Shown here one piece after another: positions 6,842-56,959 of a DNA stretch of 64,000 nucleotides. The DNA is from Escherichia coli (GTDB taxonomy: Bacteria; Pseudomonadota; Gammaproteobacteria; Enterobacterales; Enterobacteriaceae): the NCBI RefSeq assembly GCF_044647545.1, contig NZ_CP172818.1. One strand, 5' to 3'. The position numbers and the translations under genes are program-made. Under the pieces are notes generated by a model, which was given only the letters and a program-made list of their open reading frames with translations, was not told the DNA's origin and ran no database searches. Each line of letters opens with the position of its first letter. Position 1 is the first letter of the stretch.

Positions 6842-7054
6842 TCAAGACAAATAAACATTTGCCGCTGTTGGTCCTCGCAGGCCATTTACGCGGCAAAATT
6901 CCACGCGTAATCCTGGTATAAGCACTTCTGCGTCGCGGGGAGTGAATGCGGAAATATGGACCTGGACTTCTTTACGACCGTCGGAGGGGATAATGAATCC
7001 TTTGCCGCTTTTGCGATCAAAGGTTTTGACAATTCCTGTCATTTTACGGGACAA
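6842..7054 (-). CDS. cspH: Cold shock-like protein CspH
   Basis: 70-aa [16 protein letters not shown]...; cold-shock domain. Confidence 0.9.
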
Positions 7055-7339
7055 ACAAATTCCTTACTGAAAATACTGCGCTGCACTATACGGGGTTAAT
7101 AAAATAAAGCCAGCGATATTTAAGACCGCCGGACGGCTAAAATAAAATTTGCTTAATCTCAATTATCATGCGTTAATAGCTGCGTCGGTTTGAAAGACAG
7201 ACAGCATACAAAGTAGTTTACTAAAGCAGTTCTCATTATCAGGCATTATCCCCTTCTTTTGAGTCTCTCTCCTGAACACTAAGTAGTTTCTGTATTAAAG
7301 CCCTGTTTGCCGAAAGGCCCAAAATGAAGGAAGTAAAAT

Positions 7340-7552
7340 ATGTCTAATAAAATGACTGGTTTAGTAAAATGGTTTAACGCAGATAAAGGTTTTGGCTTTA
7401 TCACTCCTGATGATGGCAGCAAAGACGTTTTCGTCCATTTCACCGCCATCCAGAGCAATGAATTCCGCACGCTGAACGAAAATCAGAAAGTTGAATTTTC
7501 TATTGAGCAGGGGCAACGTGGTCCCGCGGCAGCGAACGTTGTTACGCTCTAA
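7340..7552 (+). CDS. cspG: Cold shock protein CspG
   Basis: 70-aa [29 protein letters not shown]... with long 5' leader as in csp genes. Confidence 0.92.
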
Positions 7553-7751
7553 GGTTGCCGTTATTACTCAACATCTCCATTTCCGCTGTCCATGTTGTCA
7601 TGGTTCACAGTACCGCACATCGGCATTCGATGTGACGGAGCGAAATCCTTTAGGGGCAAAGTGTATTTTTTGTAAATCGACGATGATCACCTTTGATAAC
7701 GTCGCGCTGCAAATACGCACTGAGCATGCGCCGCTGGATTTCACAAAATAA
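7518..7751 (+). CDS. ymcE: Small protein YmcE (Sfa-like); start uncertain, overlaps the cspG 3' end
   Basis: ORF ...[35 protein letters not shown]... ending 7751; start codon choice (GTG 7518) is tentative. Confidence 0.5.
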
Positions 7752-7945
7752 TATCAGGCTCCCTCGTGGAGCCTTTTTTATATCTGCCTTATTTTTCTTC
7801 AACGCTGTATGTATAGTAAGCGATAACCTGTTGATTATTGAATCTTTCGGGGAGATGGCTTATAACATTTCTTACCTGACCAGGGTACCGGGAACCAACA
7901 CCTTACTGGCGTGTTGCTGTCATTTAAGACCAGAAGAGGTTAACA

Positions 7946-8119
7946 GTGAATATTGAAGAGTTAAAAAAACAAGCCGAAACGGAAATCGCTGACTTTATCG
8001 CGCAAAAAATCGCCGAGCTGAACAAGAATACAGGGAAAGAAGTCTCTGAAATTCGCTTCACCGCACGAGAAAAAATGACCGGGCTTGAAAGTTATGATGT
8101 CAAAATCAAAATAATGTGA
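7946..8119 (+). CDS. gnsA: GnsA (57 aa), GTG start
   Basis: GTG-initiated ORF VNIEELKKQAETEIADFIAQKIAELNKNTGKEVSEIRFTAREKMTGLESYDVKIKIM; missed by the ORF track because under 60 aa. Confidence 0.75.
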   Translation: MNIEELKKQAETEIADFIAQKIAELNKNTGKEVSEIRFTAREKMTGLESYDVKIKIM

Positions 8120-8125
8120 TTTTGT

Positions 8126-8154
8126 GAACATCACCCCGTGCGAGGTGATGTTCC
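8126..8154. terminator. Hairpin terminator between convergent gnsA and yccM
   Basis: gaacatcacc...ggtgatgttc inverted repeat. Confidence 0.5.
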
Positions 8155-8167
8155 GCTTGTTGCTAAT

Positions 8168-21169: not shown

Positions 21170-21461
21170 TGGCAAAGGCATATGCTAAAAACCATTGTTA
21201 TTAGTCTCACACTTTTTTATTGGTAAATATTGTCTCTGTATTGGAAACGCCGCAGATATTCTGTTTAGCCACAGGTGCAATTATCAGCGGCGTACGCGAG
21301 GCAGGGGCTAATCAGGCATAGTTTGCGTCAAACCTTGCCTGTTTTTGAAGATGTATATAGAAAAACAGGCGTTCAACAAGCCATTTTGCGAACCTGTTCC
21401 CGGAAAAAAGTCATATTTCTGTCACACTCTTTAGTGATTGATAACAAAAGAGGTGCCAGGA

Positions 21462-40609: not shown

Positions 40610-41376
40610 TCAAAGCTCGTCGCGAGGCAAAACGTGTGCTGAGACGGGATTCGCGCAGCCATAAGCAGCGTGAAGAAGAATCGGTCACCTCGCTTGTGCA
40701 GATGAGCGGCGTAGAAGCCATTGGTATGGCCCGCGACAGTCGCGATACTTCGCCCATCCTCGCGCGAAATGAAGCGCAATTGCACTATCTGAAGGCTATT
40801 GAGAGTAAGCAGCTGATATTCGCCACGGGCGAAGCTGGGTGCGGAAAAACCTGGATCAGCGCAGCAAAAGCGGCAGAGGCCCTGATACATAAGGATGTCG
40901 ACAGGATTATCGTCACCCGTCCAGTTCTGCAAGCCGATGAAGATCTTGGCTTCTTACCTGGTGATATCGCAGAAAAGTTTGCTCCCTATTTTCGCCCGGT
41001 CTACGATGTGCTGGTCCGGCGCTTAGGGGCTTCCTTTATGCAGTACTGCCTGCGACCAGAAATAGGGAAGGTGGAAATTGCGCCGTTCGCCTATATGCGT
41101 GGACGTACCTTTGAAAATGCAGTCGTCATTCTTGACGAGGCGCAGAATGTGACTGCCGCGCAAATGAAAATGTTTTTAACCCGCCTCGGGGAGAACGTGA
41201 CGGTTATCGTCAACGGTGATATCACGCAATGCGATTTGCCTCGCGGCGTGTGCTCCGGATTAAGTGACGCGCTGGAACGTTTCGAAGAGGATGAAATGGT
41301 CGGGATCGTCCGATTCGGTAAAGAGGATTGCGTACGTTCGGCACTTTGCCAACGTACGCTACATGCATACAGTTAA
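40588..41376 (+). CDS. phoH: PhoH ATPase core (short form, 262 aa)
   Basis: ATG 40588 MGRQKAVIKARREAK...; Walker A GEAGCGKT; ORF track shows an upstream alternative start at 40453. Confidence 0.85.
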   Translation: MGRQKAVIKARREAKRVLRRDSRSHKQREEESVTSLVQMSGVEAIGMARDSRDTSPILARNEAQLHYLKAIESKQLIFATGEAGCGKTWISAAKAAEALIHKDVDRIIVTRPVLQADEDLGFLPGDIAEKFAPYFRPVYDVLVRRLGASFMQYCLRPEIGKVEIAPFAYMRGRTFENAVVILDEAQNVTAAQMKMFLTRLGENVTVIVNGDITQCDLPRGVCSGLSDALERFEEDEMVGIVRFGKEDCVRSALCQRTLHAYS

Positions 41377-45185: not shown

Positions 45186-47609
45186 TTAAAATCTGAATGT
45201 CATATCGAATTCAACGTATAAGTTGTGTTCTCTGTCACCGTCATAAGGTCGTTTTTCCCAGCGTAGCGTTGCGCCAGCATCAATCACGTCATTCCAGCTA
45301 ATACGTTGCCCGTAGCCGAGTTGGGTGACGACATCCGTGCCATAATGTTTTTGCCAGGAGGCACCAACACCTGCGCTGAAGATTTGCTCCCAGCTATTTT
45401 CATAGCTACGCCATAACAAATGACTTGCCTCAAATGCCGGAACAATATCGAACGTTTTTATAGGGTTGTAGTATGGAGTGTCGTGTTCTGTATTTTGTTC
45501 GTAATACAGATTGGGTAGGAAATCGACAATCAAATATGGTGAAGACCAGATGCGTTCCTGACCCTCAAGTGAGACTTCCTGACGCTGGTTACTGTCGGAA
45601 AAATCAGTGAAAGCCCAGGAGACACCGTACTTACGCCGCTCATTTTGATACCAGCGAACATAAGCCTGAGCACTGTTGCCTGTAACACCATTTTTCATTG
45701 CCCGTAATGGAACGCGGTGAGAGAGGCGTTCCAGTTGCGAACCAATACGCCAGTTATCATTAAAATCATACCAGCCAGATAGGCGCGCGCCGGGTTTATG
45801 CTCATGATTGAAAACGCGTTCAGCGTACTCCGCCTCGAGCCAGATATTACGTGACCGCCACTCAACACCCGCCAGCCAGTCGCGAACAATCCCTTTTCCT
45901 TCGCTAAATTGTCCATCGGCATAACCGAATCCAGCAAAACCGCGCCAGTTATCCTTCAGCGGTGGTGAATAAACGATGGTGGTTAAGTCGACATCATGTT
46001 TACCACTATCCGGGCCTTCGGCATCAATTCCTGTTGAACCAGCTATACGAAGCTCTGCAAGATTATGTACATCAACCGCACGTTTTAAACGTACAACGCC
46101 GGGATCTTGCGGTTCACGTTCGACAACATCGTGCGTTAAGACAGCTGCCTGCTGCCATTCTTGTAACGTTAATGCTGTCCATGCTTGTTCAACCTCCAGA
46201 TTAATATTACGTGGCTCGATCACTTCTGCTTTTTTTAATTCATTTTCTGCTGCACGAGGCCAACCGCGGGCTTGTAACACACTCGCGTAATCAATGCGCA
46301 GTCCCTGATTTCCTGGTGCGTTATAAGCAAGCTCTCTGGCTATCATTTCAGCCTGAGGAAGATCATTACTATATTTTGCTACGGTTGAGAGAAACGAATG
46401 CCCCTGTAACCAGGTATCATTCGGGATGCTCGTAGGCGTGCCCATTAACCGAAGGAAAGGCGGCGAAGTATTAATGGTATGTTGGGTGACAGTTAGCGCG
46501 CCGGGATAATTTTCACTCTCCAGGTGGCTGTAAAAGAGATCCGCAAGTTCTTCATCGGATAAATCCGGGGCAATGGTCTCCTTGTGATAAAAGAGCTCTG
46601 TCATTATTGACTGTGCTTTTTTTGGCTGATGTTCTTTGAGATAAGCCGACGCAACCCAATATTGCGCCCAGGGTGGAATAATTTGCCCCGTCTTTTTTAA
46701 ACGCTGATAGTGAGAAATAACGTCTTTATAACGATCGCGAGTTAATAACGCGCCAAGATGATCAACCTGAATACGCTGGTACTGGGCAGTGCGGTCAGGG
46801 TTATCATACCAAAGAATTTCTAATGCAGCGTATTGGGCGAGGGCGCGATCGGCAATGGCATAACGTTCACTTTCACTGCGCGTAGGCATAAACGACAGTC
46901 TGACCAGTTCGGCATGAATATCAGCGCGAATATCTGGCGTTAAATTGGCATCGTCAATCGCGGCAGTAAGTTGATTATTCCGTAATGCCTGCACGTATTC
47001 TGTGGGATATTGTTGCGTTAAGGCATTTTCAGGTAATGATCCTGTCATCGCCCGTAATTCATCCTCATGCCGCCCCGCCAGTTTATAGATATAGGCTTCT
47101 GCGAGTAAATTAGCTTTGTCCGGTGCTCCAGAGTTAAGCTGCTTAAGTTTAACCAGCGCAGAATCATAGTGACCCGCATCTGCCAGGGTTAAAATTTGTC
47201 CCCGTTGATAATCCTTATTTTGCGACTCCAGAGAGAGTGCCTTTTGCCACAGTGTAAGCGAGTTTTGCCATTGTTGCAGGTTACGATAAGCGACGGCGAC
47301 AGCTGCATAACCACGCGCTGGTAATTGCTGATGACGGTAGCGGTTGTAAACGGTAATAACCTGTTTATCTTGCCCGGCCCATAAGGCAATCTGTAACCAG
47401 TCAGCAATTTGGTTATTACTGAGAGCTGATTTTTGTGCAAACCATAACAAAGCTGGCTGAGTATTTCCCTTGCGAGCTTCGATAATCAATGCATCATAGG
47501 CATTATTAACAGCACTCTTCGCCGCGGGACTCGCTGCTAAAAATGCGGCAGTAAGAATTTTCAAAGCCCATTTGGTTTTCGGGCACCTTTTTCTGCTACT
47601 TGAATACAT
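45186..47609 (-). CDS. pgaA: PGA export outer membrane porin PgaA
   Basis: 807-aa ORF with signal peptide. Confidence 0.92.
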   Translation of the reverse strand: MYSSSRKRCPKTKWALKILTAAFLAASPAAKSAVNNAYDALIIEARKGNTQPALLWFAQKSALSNNQIADWLQIALWAGQDKQVITVYNRYRHQQLPARGYAAVAVAYRNLQQWQNSLTLWQKALSLESQNKDYQRGQILTLADAGHYDSALVKLKQLNSGAPDKANLLAEAYIYKLAGRHEDELRAMTGSLPENALTQQYPTEYVQALRNNQLTAAIDDANLTPDIRADIHAELVRLSFMPTRSESERYAIADRALAQYAALEILWYDNPDRTAQYQRIQVDHLGALLTRDRYKDVISHYQRLKKTGQIIPPWAQYWVASAYLKEHQPKKAQSIMTELFYHKETIAPDLSDEELADLFYSHLESENYPGALTVTQHTINTSPPFLRLMGTPTSIPNDTWLQGHSFLSTVAKYSNDLPQAEMIARELAYNAPGNQGLRIDYASVLQARGWPRAAENELKKAEVIEPRNINLEVEQAWTALTLQEWQQAAVLTHDVVEREPQDPGVVRLKRAVDVHNLAELRIAGSTGIDAEGPDSGKHDVDLTTIVYSPPLKDNWRGFAGFGYADGQFSEGKGIVRDWLAGVEWRSRNIWLEAEYAERVFNHEHKPGARLSGWYDFNDNWRIGSQLERLSHRVPLRAMKNGVTGNSAQAYVRWYQNERRKYGVSWAFTDFSDSNQRQEVSLEGQERIWSSPYLIVDFLPNLYYEQNTEHDTPYYNPIKTFDIVPAFEASHLLWRSYENSWEQIFSAGVGASWQKHYGTDVVTQLGYGQRISWNDVIDAGATLRWEKRPYDGDREHNLYVEFDMTFRF

Positions 47610-47843
47610 CCTGTATTACTCCATGTATTGCCAAAATCTCTCTCTGTATCTAATTACAGGTAACTGAAACGAAAGATATTTTTTTTGCACATCATAATCC
47701 GTTATTAAACGCGGAAGAGAGACGTGAATTGTTGATGATGAGAAGAAGAAATGATGAGTAGAGTATCCATATAAAATCCTTTTCTCGCCCGAAAATCCAT
47801 TCCAATGATGAGGATCTTCAGGAATACGGCATAAATCCCAATG
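47610..47843 (-). promoter_or_regulatory. pgaA 5' untranslated leader with GGA (CsrA-type) motifs
   Basis: Minus-strand leader reads ...ttggcaatacatGGAgtaatacaGGAtgtattcaagtagc with GGA motifs over the SD and start codon. Confidence 0.65.
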
Positions 47844-48198
47844 CCTTTTTCAAAATAAATTAGGATTAAAATAATTAAATCAGTAAATTCCGATGCATGA
47901 TATCGGATTTTTCGAAAGTCCTGATGAAATGCAGCGTTACTGTACTCACGGATTCAATTGTTATTCCTAATATATCTATGAATTAATGTTTTATAAGGAT
48001 TTCCTTATAACCATTTATATGTATTTGCAAGCCTGTCTTGTCGCGAAGAATGTATAAAGCACTAAGGTAATAATAATTGCGGTCTGCAACTATCATCATT
48101 GGTATTGTTTGTGGTGGATTTTTATATTGACAACAGTACAGTTCTTATATCTATTAATGACAGAAAGGGATCTACAACCTACAGATTGGTGTAGCTTT

Positions 48199-49617
48199 AT
48201 GGAAAAAGACTATTTGGGAATTAGTAGTACTGTATTAGTGAGTTTATTGTTTGGGCTTGCGTTGGTTTTGGTGAATAGTTGGTTCAATCAGCCAACCGTT
48301 GAGGAAGTTGTTCCACGATCAACCTATCTGATGGTTATGATTGCTTTATTTTTTATCGATACTGTTGCATTTATTTTTATGCAGTTGTATTTCATTTATG
48401 ACCGTAGGCAATTTTCAAACTGTATACTTAGTTTGGCTTTTCTAAGTTGTTTGATTTACTTTATTAAAACCGTCATTATCATTCAGCAAATTATTGAGGG
48501 GCGTTTGACAAGCAGTGTTGTTCAAAATGACATTGCAATTTATTATTTGTTTCGTCAGATGAGTTTGTGCGTATTAATATTTCTGGCATTGGTAAATAAA
48601 GTTAGTGAAAACACAAAACAGCGCAATTTGTTTTCCAAAAAAGTGACTTTGTGCATAACTTTGTTTTTTGTTCTTGGGGGGCCGATAGTTGCTCACATAT
48701 TTTCTAGCCATTATGAGAGCTACGATTTACACATTGCCGAGTTAACCAATGAAAATGGTCAGGTGGTTTGGAAAGCCTCATATGTTACCATAATGATTTT
48801 CATGTGGTTAACCTTGCTTTCGGTTAATCTATACTTTAATGGTTTACGCTGTGATATCTGGAACGGGGTGTCGGTGATTGCTTTTTGTGCCGTGCTGTAC
48901 AATATCTCTCTGTTATTTATGAGCAGGTATAGCGTGTCCATTTGGTATATTAGTCGCACTATTGAAGTAGTCAGTAAGTTAACCGTTTTGGTAATTTTTA
49001 TGTGCCATATATTCAGTGCGCTACGAGTAACAAAGGACATTGCACATCGCGATCCCTTAACCAATATATTTAACAGAAATTATTTTTTTAATGAACTGAC
49101 GGTTCAATCAGCATCGGCCAAAAAAACACCTTATTGCGTCATGATTATGGATATTGACCACTTCAAAAAAGTCAACGACACCTGGGGACATCCGGTTGGC
49201 GATCAAGTGATAAAGACAGTGGTGAATATCATTGGGAAAAGCATACGACCAGATGACCTTTTAGCGCGCGTTGGCGGCGAAGAGTTTGGCGTCTTGCTGA
49301 CGGAGATCGATACTGAATGTGCGAAAGCTTTAGCGGAAAGGATTCGGGAAAATGTTGAACGTTTAACTGGCGATAATCCTGAATACGCCATACCACAAAA
49401 AGTGACGATTAGTATTGGCGCTGTTGTAACGCAGAAAAATGAGTTAAACCCTAAGGAGATCTATCAACTGGCTGATAACGCACTTTACGAGGCGAAAGAG
49501 ACCGGGCGTAATAAGCCGCTGTCGCCAGTTGTCGACCTCCGCTTGGGGCTTCTCATCCCCCCGGTGTGTGCAATATACGAAAAAAAAGCCCGTACTTTCG
49601 TACGAGCTCTTCTTTAA
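48199..49617 (+). CDS. dgcT: Diguanylate cyclase DgcT (YcdT) with divergent, extended C-terminus
   Basis: MEKDYLGISSTVLVSLLFGL... membrane N-terminus, GGDEF domain with RVGGEEFGVLL; ORF runs about 20 codons past the expected end into the serX terminator. Confidence 0.85.
   Translation: MEKDYLGISSTVLVSLLFGLALVLVNSWFNQPTVEEVVPRSTYLMVMIALFFIDTVAFIFMQLYFIYDRRQFSNCILSLAFLSCLIYFIKTVIIIQQIIEGRLTSSVVQNDIAIYYLFRQMSLCVLIFLALVNKVSENTKQRNLFSKKVTLCITLFFVLGGPIVAHIFSSHYESYDLHIAELTNENGQVVWKASYVTIMIFMWLTLLSVNLYFNGLRCDIWNGVSVIAFCAVLYNISLLFMSRYSVSIWYISRTIEVVSKLTVLVIFMCHIFSALRVTKDIAHRDPLTNIFNRNYFFNELTVQSASAKKTPYCVMIMDIDHFKKVNDTWGHPVGDQVIKTVVNIIGKSIRPDDLLARVGGEEFGVLLTEIDTECAKALAERIRENVERLTGDNPEYAIPQKVTISIGAVVTQKNELNPKEIYQLADNALYEAKETGRNKPLSPVVDLRLGLLIPPVCAIYEKKARTFVRALL
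49579..49607 (-). terminator. Rho-independent terminator of serX (minus strand)
   Basis: cgtac-tttc-gtacg hairpin adjacent to an A-run on plus (U-run on minus), immediately 3' of the tRNA. Confidence 0.65.
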
Positions 49618-49620
49618 ATA

Positions 49621-49708
49621 TGGCGGTGAGGGGGGGATTCGAACCCCCGATACGTTGCCGTATACACACTTTCCAGGCGTGCTCCTTCAGCCACTCGGAC
49701 ACCTCACC
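49621..49708 (-). tRNA. serX: tRNA-Ser (GGA anticodon)
   Basis: Reverse complement reads GGTGAGGTGTCCGAGTGGCTGAAGGAGCACGCCTGGAAAGTGTGTATACGGCAACGTATCGGGGGTTCGAATCCCCCCCTCACCGCCA with long variable arm and 3' CCA. Confidence 0.93.
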
Positions 49709-54601: not shown

Positions 54602-55252
<651 letters not shown>

Positions 55253-56007
55253 GATGAAACCCCGCTTTTTTTTATTGATCGCACACCTGACAGCTGCCTC
55301 TAAAATAGAAGCACCAGAAGTACTGACAGATGTTGCACTGCTGTGTGTAGTAATAAATCAGCCCTAAATGGGTAAAATATAAAACTAATGGATTACATCT
55401 GATTTCAATCTAGCCATTACAAATCTTAAATCAAGTGTTAAACATGTAACTAAATGTAACTCGTTATATTGAAATGTTAATCTTAAGGTTTTATTAAGTT
55501 TAGAAATGATAGAAAAGTTGTACATTTGGTTTTTATTGCACAATTTTAAAAAATCATACAAATGGTGCTAACTTGCTAATAATGCATATAAAAAATATTT
55601 CGGTGTAGTCCTTTCGTCATGTAAAACGTTCTTGTTTTTTCTCTACACCTCCTTGGACAATTTTTTACTGCAAAAAGACGAGGTTTGTCACGGCTTGTGC
55701 GCAAGACATATCGCAGCAATCAGCGACGTGCAAGAAGAATGGCTGTCTGGTGATTTTTGATTGCGGAAAACGGAGATTTAAAAGAAAACAAAATATTTTT
55801 TTGCGTAGATAACAGCGTATTTACGTGGGTTTTAATACTTTGGTATGAACAAAAAAAGAAAAATACAACGCGCGGGTGAGTTATTAAAAATATTTCCGCA
55901 GACATACTTTCCATCGTAACGCAGCGTTAACAAAATACAGGTTGCGTTAACAACCAAGTTGAAATGATTTAATTTCTTAAATGTACGACCAGGTCCAGGG
56001 TGACAAC
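55253..56007. promoter_or_regulatory. csgD-csgB divergent intergenic regulatory region (AT-rich, about 750 bp)
   Basis: Long AT-rich non-coding interval between divergent csgDEFG and csgBAC. Confidence 0.8.
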
Positions 56008-56463
56008 ATGAAAAACAAATTGTTATTTATGATGTTAACAATACTGGGTGCGCCTGGGATTGCAGCCGCAGCAGGTTATGATTTAGCTAATTCAGAATAT
56101 AACTTCGCGGTAAATGAATTGAGTAAGTCTTCATTTAATCAGGCAGCCATAATTGGTCAAGCTGGGACTAATAATAGTGCTCAGTTACGGCAGGGAGGCT
56201 CAAAACTTTTGGCGGTTGTTGCGCAAGAAGGTAGTAGCAACCGGGCAAAGATTGACCAGACAGGAGATTATAACCTTGCATATATTGATCAGGCGGGCAA
56301 TGCCAACGATGCCAGTATTTCGCAAGGTGCTTATGGTAATACTGCGATGATTATCCAGAAAGGTTCTGGTAATAAAGCAAATATTACACAGTATGGTACT
56401 CAAAAAACGGCAATTGTAGTGCAGAGACAGTCGCAAATGGCTATTCGCGTGACACAACGTTAA
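56008..56463 (+). CDS. csgB: Curli nucleator CsgB
   Basis: 151 aa from MKNKLLFMMLTILGAPGIAAA; imperfect Q/N-rich repeats. Confidence 0.92.
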   Translation: MKNKLLFMMLTILGAPGIAAAAGYDLANSEYNFAVNELSKSSFNQAAIIGQAGTNNSAQLRQGGSKLLAVVAQEGSSNRAKIDQTGDYNLAYIDQAGNANDASISQGAYGNTAMIIQKGSGNKANITQYGTQKTAIVVQRQSQMAIRVTQR

Positions 56464-56503: not shown

Positions 56504-56959
56504 ATGAAACTTTTAAAAGTAGCAGCAATTGCAGCAATCGTATTCTCTGGTAGCGCTCTGGCAGGTGTTGTTCCTCAGTACGGCGGCGGCGGTAACCACG
56601 GTGGTGGCGGTAATAATAGCGGCCCAAATTCAGAGCTGAACATTTACCAGTACGGTGGCGGTAACTCTGCTCTTGCTCTGCAAGCTGACACCCGTAACTC
56701 TGATCTGACCATTACCCAGCACGGCGGCGGTAACGGCGCAGATGTTGGCCAAGGTTCTGATGACAGCTCAATCGATCTGACTCAGCGTGGTTTCGGCAAC
56801 AGCGCTACTCTTGATCAGTGGAATGGTAAAGATTCTACTATGACTGTTAAACAGTTCGGTGGCGGTAACGGTGCTGCTGTTGACCAGACTGCATCTAACT
56901 CCAGCGTTAACGTCACTCAGGTTGGCTTTGGTAACAACGCGACCGCTCATCAGTACTAA
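56504..56959 (+). CDS. csgA: Major curlin subunit CsgA
   Basis: 151 aa; five imperfect S-x5-Q-x-G-x-G-N-x-A-x3-Q repeats. Confidence 0.93.
   Translation: MKLLKVAAIAAIVFSGSALAGVVPQYGGGGNHGGGGNNSGPNSELNIYQYGGGNSALALQADTRNSDLTITQHGGGNGADVGQGSDDSSIDLTQRGFGNSATLDQWNGKDSTMTVKQFGGGNGAAVDQTASNSSVNVTQVGFGNNATAHQY

Follow-up and report, generated by a model that had tools for sequence, protein, structure and literature searches.

The csgD-csgB intergenic region

In the window, by which we mean the whole stretch of 64,000 nucleotides of Escherichia coli DNA analysed here, the list of open reading frames (ORFs) and the sequence together delimit a gap of 755 bp at 55253..56007, between the divergently oriented genes csgD and csgB. 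All seven csg genes are full length, free of internal stops and arranged in the K-12 order (csgDEFG and csgBAC), and the cluster has ycdZ and ymdA-ymdB-clsC as neighbours. The identity of the region, its anatomy and the conservation of every landmark were observed directly. The features are as follows, with negative positions counted upstream from the csgD transcription start:

54602..55252, minus strand: csgD coding sequence, 216 aa, left boundary of the gap (from the ORF list)
55253..55400, minus strand: csgD 5′ UTR, 148-149 nt, identical to K-12 except for one extra base
55260-55265, minus strand: CCCCGC, complement of the csgD Shine-Dalgarno (SD) sequence, within the csgD 5′ UTR
55266..55273, minus strand: A8 tract in the mRNA (T8 on the plus strand, with the extra T at 55266), directly upstream of the csgD SD sequence
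about 55283-55333, minus strand: SL1 of the csgD 5′ UTR
55309..55400, minus strand: match to Rfam family RF02752 (“ES056 sRNA”), 119.7 bits against a gathering threshold of 43
55407..55412 (-7 to -12), minus strand: putative -10 hexamer TAGATT of csgD P1, placed by its distance to the transcript 5′ end
55440..55461, minus strand: OmpR D1 direct repeat GTTACATTTAGTTACATGT, centre near -51, recognized by its sequence, identical to K-12 and conserved across genera
55471, no strand assigned: SNP at -71, G on the plus strand (A in K-12), in the conserved block that separates OmpR D1 from the MlrA box
55513..55547, no strand assigned: MlrA palindrome AAAAGTTGTACA...TGCACAATTTT, centre near -130, identical to K-12, both half-sites conserved across genera
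55581..55837, no strand assigned: central spacer, 257 bp, with 6 of the 11 K-12 SNPs, poorly conserved in sequence and constant in length
55838..55957, plus strand: csgB promoter block, made up of conserved blocks, with one K-12 difference at 55851
55873-55883: CGGGTGAGTTA, which we take to be the CsgD box on the basis of its consensus
55903-55908, plus strand: putative sigma-S-like -10 element CATACT, identical to K-12
55958..56007, plus strand: distal csgB 5′ leader, identical to K-12
55988-56007, plus strand: csgB SD region, conserved at 0.91-0.94, directly before the ATG at 56008
56008..56463, plus strand: csgB coding sequence, 151 aa, right boundary of the gap

With a GC content of 0.343, compared with 0.502 for the window, the gap falls within the lowest 1.8% of all stretches of 755 bp, and the minimum over 200 bp reaches 0.23 at 55400-55599. 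It is the second-largest stretch of the window without ORFs of at least 100 aa, the largest being 6922-8167 (1246 bp). Within the homologous 50 kb of K-12, the corresponding gap of 754 bp tops some 50 inter-feature gaps, followed by gaps of 735, 586 and 542 bp. Published work ranks it as the 13th largest intergenic region of K-12 and the 5th between divergent operons, with an AT content of 65.5% and strong intrinsic curvature (Smith et al. 2017, PMC5745457), and places mapped protein-binding sites more densely here than elsewhere in E. coli (PMC5745457). The first-pass annotation had described an unusually long, AT-rich gap of about 750 bp between csgDEFG and csgBAC. This description holds at exactly 755 bp, 34% GC and no conserved ORF; the size and AT-richness are real and no chance feature.

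Comparably AT-rich DNA occurs in the window at approximately 19600-21250 and 47380-49180 (minimum GC over 755 bp of 0.33 and 0.32, respectively), and the latter stretch maps near ymdE/ycdU in K-12. The ORF-poor stretch at 6922-8167 contains a match to the cspA-thermoregulator family (157 bits, 7184-7606, plus strand) and probably holds small csp genes, presumably a cold-shock cluster with long 5′ UTRs. Further matches were naRNA4, a REP-derived nucleoid-associated RNA (18288-18366, minus strand), and Rfam Ysr251, a Yersinia antisense sRNA (186.9 bits, 41178-41371, minus strand), which lies in what corresponds to the pga (PGA exopolysaccharide) operon and may reflect coding-sequence conservation only. 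A tRNA-Ser(GGA) gene, serX, is located at 49621-49708 (minus strand); its position and that of the csg genes fix the collinearity with K-12, at about 1.097-1.107 Mb. In practical terms, the csg region serves as an annotation anchor that places the window near 1.10 Mb in K-12 coordinates.

Comparison with K-12 and distribution in E. coli

An alignment with K-12 had been proposed along with the first-pass annotation as a means to find strain-specific promoter polymorphisms. Run end to end against MG1655 (NC_000913.3, 1103197-1103950, 754 bp), it gave 98.4% identity and 12 differing positions, namely 11 substitutions and one extra base in the window. Flanking genes and layout are the same in both strains, and the UTR core, the -10 hexamer, OmpR D1, the MlrA palindrome, the CsgD box and the csgB SD sequence are all identical. 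A megablast search recovered the region from 5371 of 5426 complete E. coli genomes, with a typical length of 752-756 bp and identities of 97.4-100% (5329 genomes). More than 30 genomes, including strains ST648, MS6198 and ECONIH1, are 100% identical to the window over the region.

We are practically certain that the region is the divergent csgDEFG-csgBAC control region of E. coli, in a natural allele common to ST648-type genomes. Its designation as the curli control region in the first-pass annotation is correct, in line with the intact csg genes and the end-to-end match to K-12, and was already known: this is a textbook regulatory region, and there is nothing new in the allele. The window thus carries an ST648-type csg allele with curli genes and regulatory landmarks intact.

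The differences were polarized with a panel of 16 sequences, comprising the window, K-12, nine further E. coli alleles and five other Escherichia species. K-12 differs alone from the whole panel at 55753 and 55851, and at 55568 it carries the minority base, in common with one other panel strain. Six changes belong to the lineage of the window alone: A8, -71G, -175G, -244T, -253T and -329T. The csgD coding sequence differs from K-12 by 5 nt and 2 aa and contains no internal stops. Every E. coli genome retrieved for the panel has one CsgD accession, WP_000481500.1, and it may be the K-12 protein that is the unusual variant. For csgA (56504-56959), 34 of 456 nt (7.5%) differ from K-12 with only 4 aa changes, and the neighbouring csg genes differ by 0.2-2.5%; judged by these figures, csgA looks like a divergent or recombinant allele.

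Conservation of the promoter regions across genera

For a phylogenetic footprint, 80 CsgD-encoding loci were retrieved, one genome per species, which yielded 77 usable sequences including the window and K-12. They represent about 20 genera, among them Escherichia, Citrobacter, Salmonella, Enterobacter, Lelliottia, Leclercia, Trabulsiella, Phytobacter, Kosakonia, Franconibacter, Atlantibacter and Buttiauxella. The gap between csgD and csgB measured 742-802 bp in 75 of the 77 sequences, the only two exceptions being Kosakonia pseudosacchari and K. quasisacchari with 586-589 bp. These two natural deletion variants have a central spacer of 135 bp and a csgB side of 115 bp. Across genera, the csgD side (55253-55580, i.e., the UTR and the promoter to about -180) is 63-82% identical to the window and the csgB side (55838-56007) 61-81%. 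Conservation peaks exactly at the UTR core, the -10 element, OmpR D1, the MlrA half-sites, the CsgD box and the csgB SD sequence throughout the approximately 20 genera.

A GC content of 34% in a window of 50%, together with the IS1 copies that a few strains carry within the region, could be read as the signature of horizontally acquired or mobile DNA of which only a remnant persists, instead of a native regulatory region. The window itself is free of IS sequence, however, and the region occupies the same place with the same length in nearly all E. coli, while its length is kept in all but two of the sequences from about 20 enterobacterial genera, between conserved flanking blocks. This conservation of synteny and length across genera excludes a foreign origin, to which we attach virtually no probability.

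On the csgD side, the block around the -10 hexamer (55403-55415) is invariant across 18 genera, and 66 of 71 species have 108 bp between the -10 element and the MlrA half-site. On the csgB side, the CsgD box lies within a block conserved across genera; its consensus is reportedly that of Brombacher and colleagues from 2003. A scan for sigma-70 promoters and terminators returned 2 promoter-like sites, compared with 4.1 expected by chance, and missed the known P1, as is to be expected because this promoter is weak and activator-dependent. OmpR D1 has been described as an activating site at -51 (PMC13304067), and MlrA has been assigned a 33-bp palindrome (cited in PMC3913822). Of 32 mapped protein sites, 26 are located within 200 bp of the csgD start (PMC5745457), and the pattern of a conserved csgD side and a poorly conserved centre matches this published clustering. 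Strain WCHEC000837 (NZ_CP032879.1) has a 10-bp deletion equivalent to 55444-55453 (-44 to -53), which removes half of OmpR D1; from this lesion, the strain is probably curli-negative.

The csgD 5′ UTR and ES056

The published csgD 5′ UTR is 148 nt long, folds into the hairpins SL1 and SL2 and is a target of small RNAs (PMC4152358). Position 55400, the 5′ end of the Rfam ES056 match, agrees with this length. The UTR of the window is that of K-12 except for the one additional base, and the predicted minimum free energy structure is the same for the A8 and the K-12 A7 alleles, at -40.1 kcal/mol for both. The description of this UTR as an sRNA target hub in the first-pass annotation would apply to the window allele as well. 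Across genera, the UTR block at 55313-55350 is strongly conserved.

In strain 142 (NZ_CP048337.1), the exact allele of the window is interrupted by an IS1A element at the equivalent of 55312-55320, inside SL1, with 777 bp added and a 9-bp target duplication (CACCAGAAG); this insertion presumably disrupts csgD expression. CUVET20-416 shows the same two-piece match at 100% identity with an IS1A transposase under it, and strain 2018-11-1BCC has an IS1 in a K-12-like allele of the region.

RF02752 was the sole Rfam match in the region and is full length (positions 1-92 of 92). ES056 stems from an RNA-seq survey (Rau et al. 2015, PMC4676190), the coordinates of which put this 92-nt transcript between 56 and 147 nt ahead of the csgD ATG, and no Rho-independent terminator was reported for the novel transcripts of that survey (PMC4676190). 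The stretch in the window that matches the family corresponds to the initial 92 nt of the csgD 5′ UTR. Because its 5′ end is the csgD transcription start and its 3′ end lies inside SL1, ES056 is best read as a fragment of the csgD 5′ UTR and not as a separate gene. Automatic annotation based on Rfam would wrongly place an sRNA gene at 55309-55400.

This bears on the question of whether the gap hides an unannotated gene, be it for a small protein or for an independent small RNA such as ES056. The sRNA label of the Rfam family with its score of 119.7 bits and the detection of the 92-nt species by RNA-seq (Rau et al. 2015, PMC4676190) would speak for such a gene, as would the seven mechanical ORFs of 38-64 aa in the gap. 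Yet all seven ORFs were rejected by comparison across Escherichia: for six of them, stops or frameshifts interrupt the frame in other E. coli or Escherichia species, and the seventh (55832-55957, minus strand), which is disrupted in K-12, lies over the conserved csgB promoter. RefSeq has no annotation under the gap in the matching genomes listed, and the central spacer is not conserved between genera. When both strands of the spacer were compared with shuffled sequences, no excess of RNA structure was found (z of +1.15 and -0.06). With ES056 favoured as a UTR fragment, we consider a hidden gene highly improbable.

A fast-evolving central spacer of constant length

What is not already obvious about the region is the combination of fast divergence and length stability in its centre. 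In the multiple alignment, the central spacer is 28-47% identical across genera, and its identity to the window base is 0.22-0.35 across the non-Escherichia species. In pairwise global alignments, the spacers of Buttiauxella and Atlantibacter align with that of the window no better than shuffled sequences, and those of Salmonella and Citrobacter only about 2 SD above them. Even congeneric species differ by 21-38% in the spacer, compared with 2-22%, mostly <15%, in the flanks. The spacer nevertheless measures 253-268 bp in 75 of the 77 sequences.

Summed over 13 species pairs, the net length change of the spacer was 13 bp per 933 substitutions, in contrast to 41 bp per 541 substitutions on the csgD side and 30 bp per 260 on the csgB side. 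In this crude comparison, the net length change per substitution is about 6-fold smaller in the spacer than in the conserved flanks. In 10 pairs the rate of length change was lower for the spacer than for the flanks, in 1 it was higher and 2 were ties, corresponding to a p of about 0.01-0.02 in a sign test that was calculated by hand on pairs that are not all independent. An alignment-independent measure, the spacing of the MlrA half-site and the CsgD box, is 353-367 bp in all 74 species with both motifs (about 20 genera) and agrees with the stability of spacer length per substitution. From the CsgD box to the csgB ATG, the distance is 114-156 bp across species.

The spacer of the window also shows a periodicity of AA/TT dinucleotides at 10.5 bp (z of about 5), which none of 300 dinucleotide-preserving shuffles reached. 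The same periodicity was found in every other Escherichia species (z of 2.2-3.7), in C. koseri and in Pseudescherichia, so that the Escherichia spacers keep their A-tract phasing despite a sequence divergence of about 25-30%. This fits the strong inherent curvature published for the E. coli region (PMC5745457). The 10.5-bp signal was absent from the spacers of Salmonella, Enterobacter, Buttiauxella and others. A family-wide conserved curvature signal was therefore rejected, as the periodicity is confined to some genera, and strict helical phasing between the two promoters was rejected as well, since spacer lengths differ by 6-11 bp between genera.

On one tentative reading, which we hold to be somewhat less probable than its negation, selection acts on the length and shape of the spacer and not on its sequence. 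The spacer would then serve as a curved ruler or insulator through which the csgD activator complex and the csgB promoter are kept in a defined geometry. Instead of stabilizing selection, a low rate of local indels could account for the constant length. Should the ruler reading be true, the geometry of the spacer could bear on the H-NS/IHF architecture and on bimodal curli expression, and selection on length would offer a simple, testable handle on promoter geometry in curli regulation.

Lineage-specific polymorphisms and csgD expression

Apart from A8 and -71G, the changes of the window lineage comprise an A-to-G substitution at 55575 (-175) and the spacer SNPs at 55644 (-244), 55653 (-253) and 55729 (-329). 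The A8 tract is unique among the 16 panel sequences, K-12 and the 14 others having A7 or fewer, and an exact 91-mer with A8 was present in 83 of 5342 matching E. coli records. The -71 position is A in K-12, in all five outgroup Escherichia and in seven of the nine other E. coli panel strains, i.e., all outgroups and 8 of the 10 other E. coli lack -71G. An exact 61-mer with -71G was present in 271 of 4746 records. Both are thus minority alleles, and of the 12 positions that differ from K-12 these two fall within or next to conserved elements, A8 being adjacent to the SD sequence.

Polymorphism of the region has been surveyed previously for the rdar phenotype (bioRxiv 10.64898/2026.04.22.719398) and for host or source tracking (PMC5007776). 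The window allele might be regulated unlike that of K-12, with one or more of these six lineage changes altering csgD expression and hence curli formation and the rdar morphotype, e.g., in its temperature dependence. The rarity of A8 and -71G and the location of -71 within a block conserved across genera point in this direction. The csgD promoter of Salmonella becomes measurably less active through single SNPs at -47, -80 and -189 (PMC6611641), and a 2026 preprint ties polymorphisms in the OmpR, IHF, CsgD and RBS sites to rdar variation in UPEC (bioRxiv 10.64898/2026.04.22.719398). Against this stand the identity of all landmark sites to K-12, the unchanged predicted structure and energy of the UTR with A8, and the position of most changes in the apparently unconstrained spacer. 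Conservation of the A-tract stretch across genera is poor (0.39) and A6 occurs in a further E. coli allele, so that variation in its length is tolerated. On balance we regard altered regulation as unlikely, and the A-to-G change at -71, by its sequence context, as the most plausible candidate for a functional promoter polymorphism.

Within the panel, variable columns were densest in the spacer, with 22 in 257 bp. The csgB side had 4 in 170 bp and the csgD side 24 in 328 bp, of which a single 10-bp deletion accounts for 10. Such spacer-dense variation fits relaxed constraint there and does not fit polymorphism confined to binding sites.

Proposed regulatory logic

Factor binding, sRNA pairing and sigma-S-dependent expression are known from experiments in K-12 and Salmonella (PMC12388358, PMC12713406, PMC3535384, PMC13304067, PMC4152358, PMC5745457). 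The binding factors include OmpR, MlrA, IHF, H-NS, CpxR, RcsB and CsgD, and the pairing sRNAs OmrA/B, McaS, RprA, GcvB and RydC. For the window allele, we infer the regulatory logic and the binding events from this literature.

Read from csgD towards csgB, the 5′ UTR of about 148 nt would be the place where Hfq-dependent small RNAs pair and block translation or destabilize the mRNA. The next 200 bp or so would comprise the sigma-S/sigma-70 promoter P1 with OmpR D1, the MlrA palindrome and, upstream, binding of IHF, H-NS, CpxR, RstA and RcdA. The fast-evolving, AT-rich 257-bp spacer with its phased A-tracts then separates the two promoters, and at the right end the csgB promoter with its CsgD box is followed by the csgB leader. 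In this scheme, environmental signals would set the level of CsgD through the region and the csgD 5′ UTR, and CsgD, acting at the other end, would then activate csgBAC. Curli are biofilm fibres, and their control region is a textbook case of dense signal integration at one promoter.

Comparison with Salmonella and with uspC-flhDC

The closest parallel beyond E. coli is the csgD(agfD)-csgB(agfB) region of Salmonella enterica, which has the same architecture, including OmpR D1, MlrA, IHF and H-NS sites, and a flank identity of 75-78%. Its gap is 754-755 bp long in published reports (PMC13304067, PMC6611641) and 760 bp in the retrieved S. diarizonae genome. The Salmonella spacer differs from that of the window, with only 36% identity in the multiple alignment and a pairwise value of 0.61, barely higher than the 0.55 of shuffled sequences. 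It lacks the 10.5-bp A-tract phasing and holds lineage-specific sites such as that of SoxS at -294. A length of 521 bp for the Salmonella region is contradicted by both the genome and the papers; this figure may be the distance between the two transcription starts. By description, the uspC-flhDC region can be likened to the csg region: it is likewise a long, AT-rich target of multiple transcription factors and small RNAs, and both regions are sources of strain-typing SNPs and hot spots of IS insertion, although the genes and regulators of uspC-flhDC differ from those of csg.
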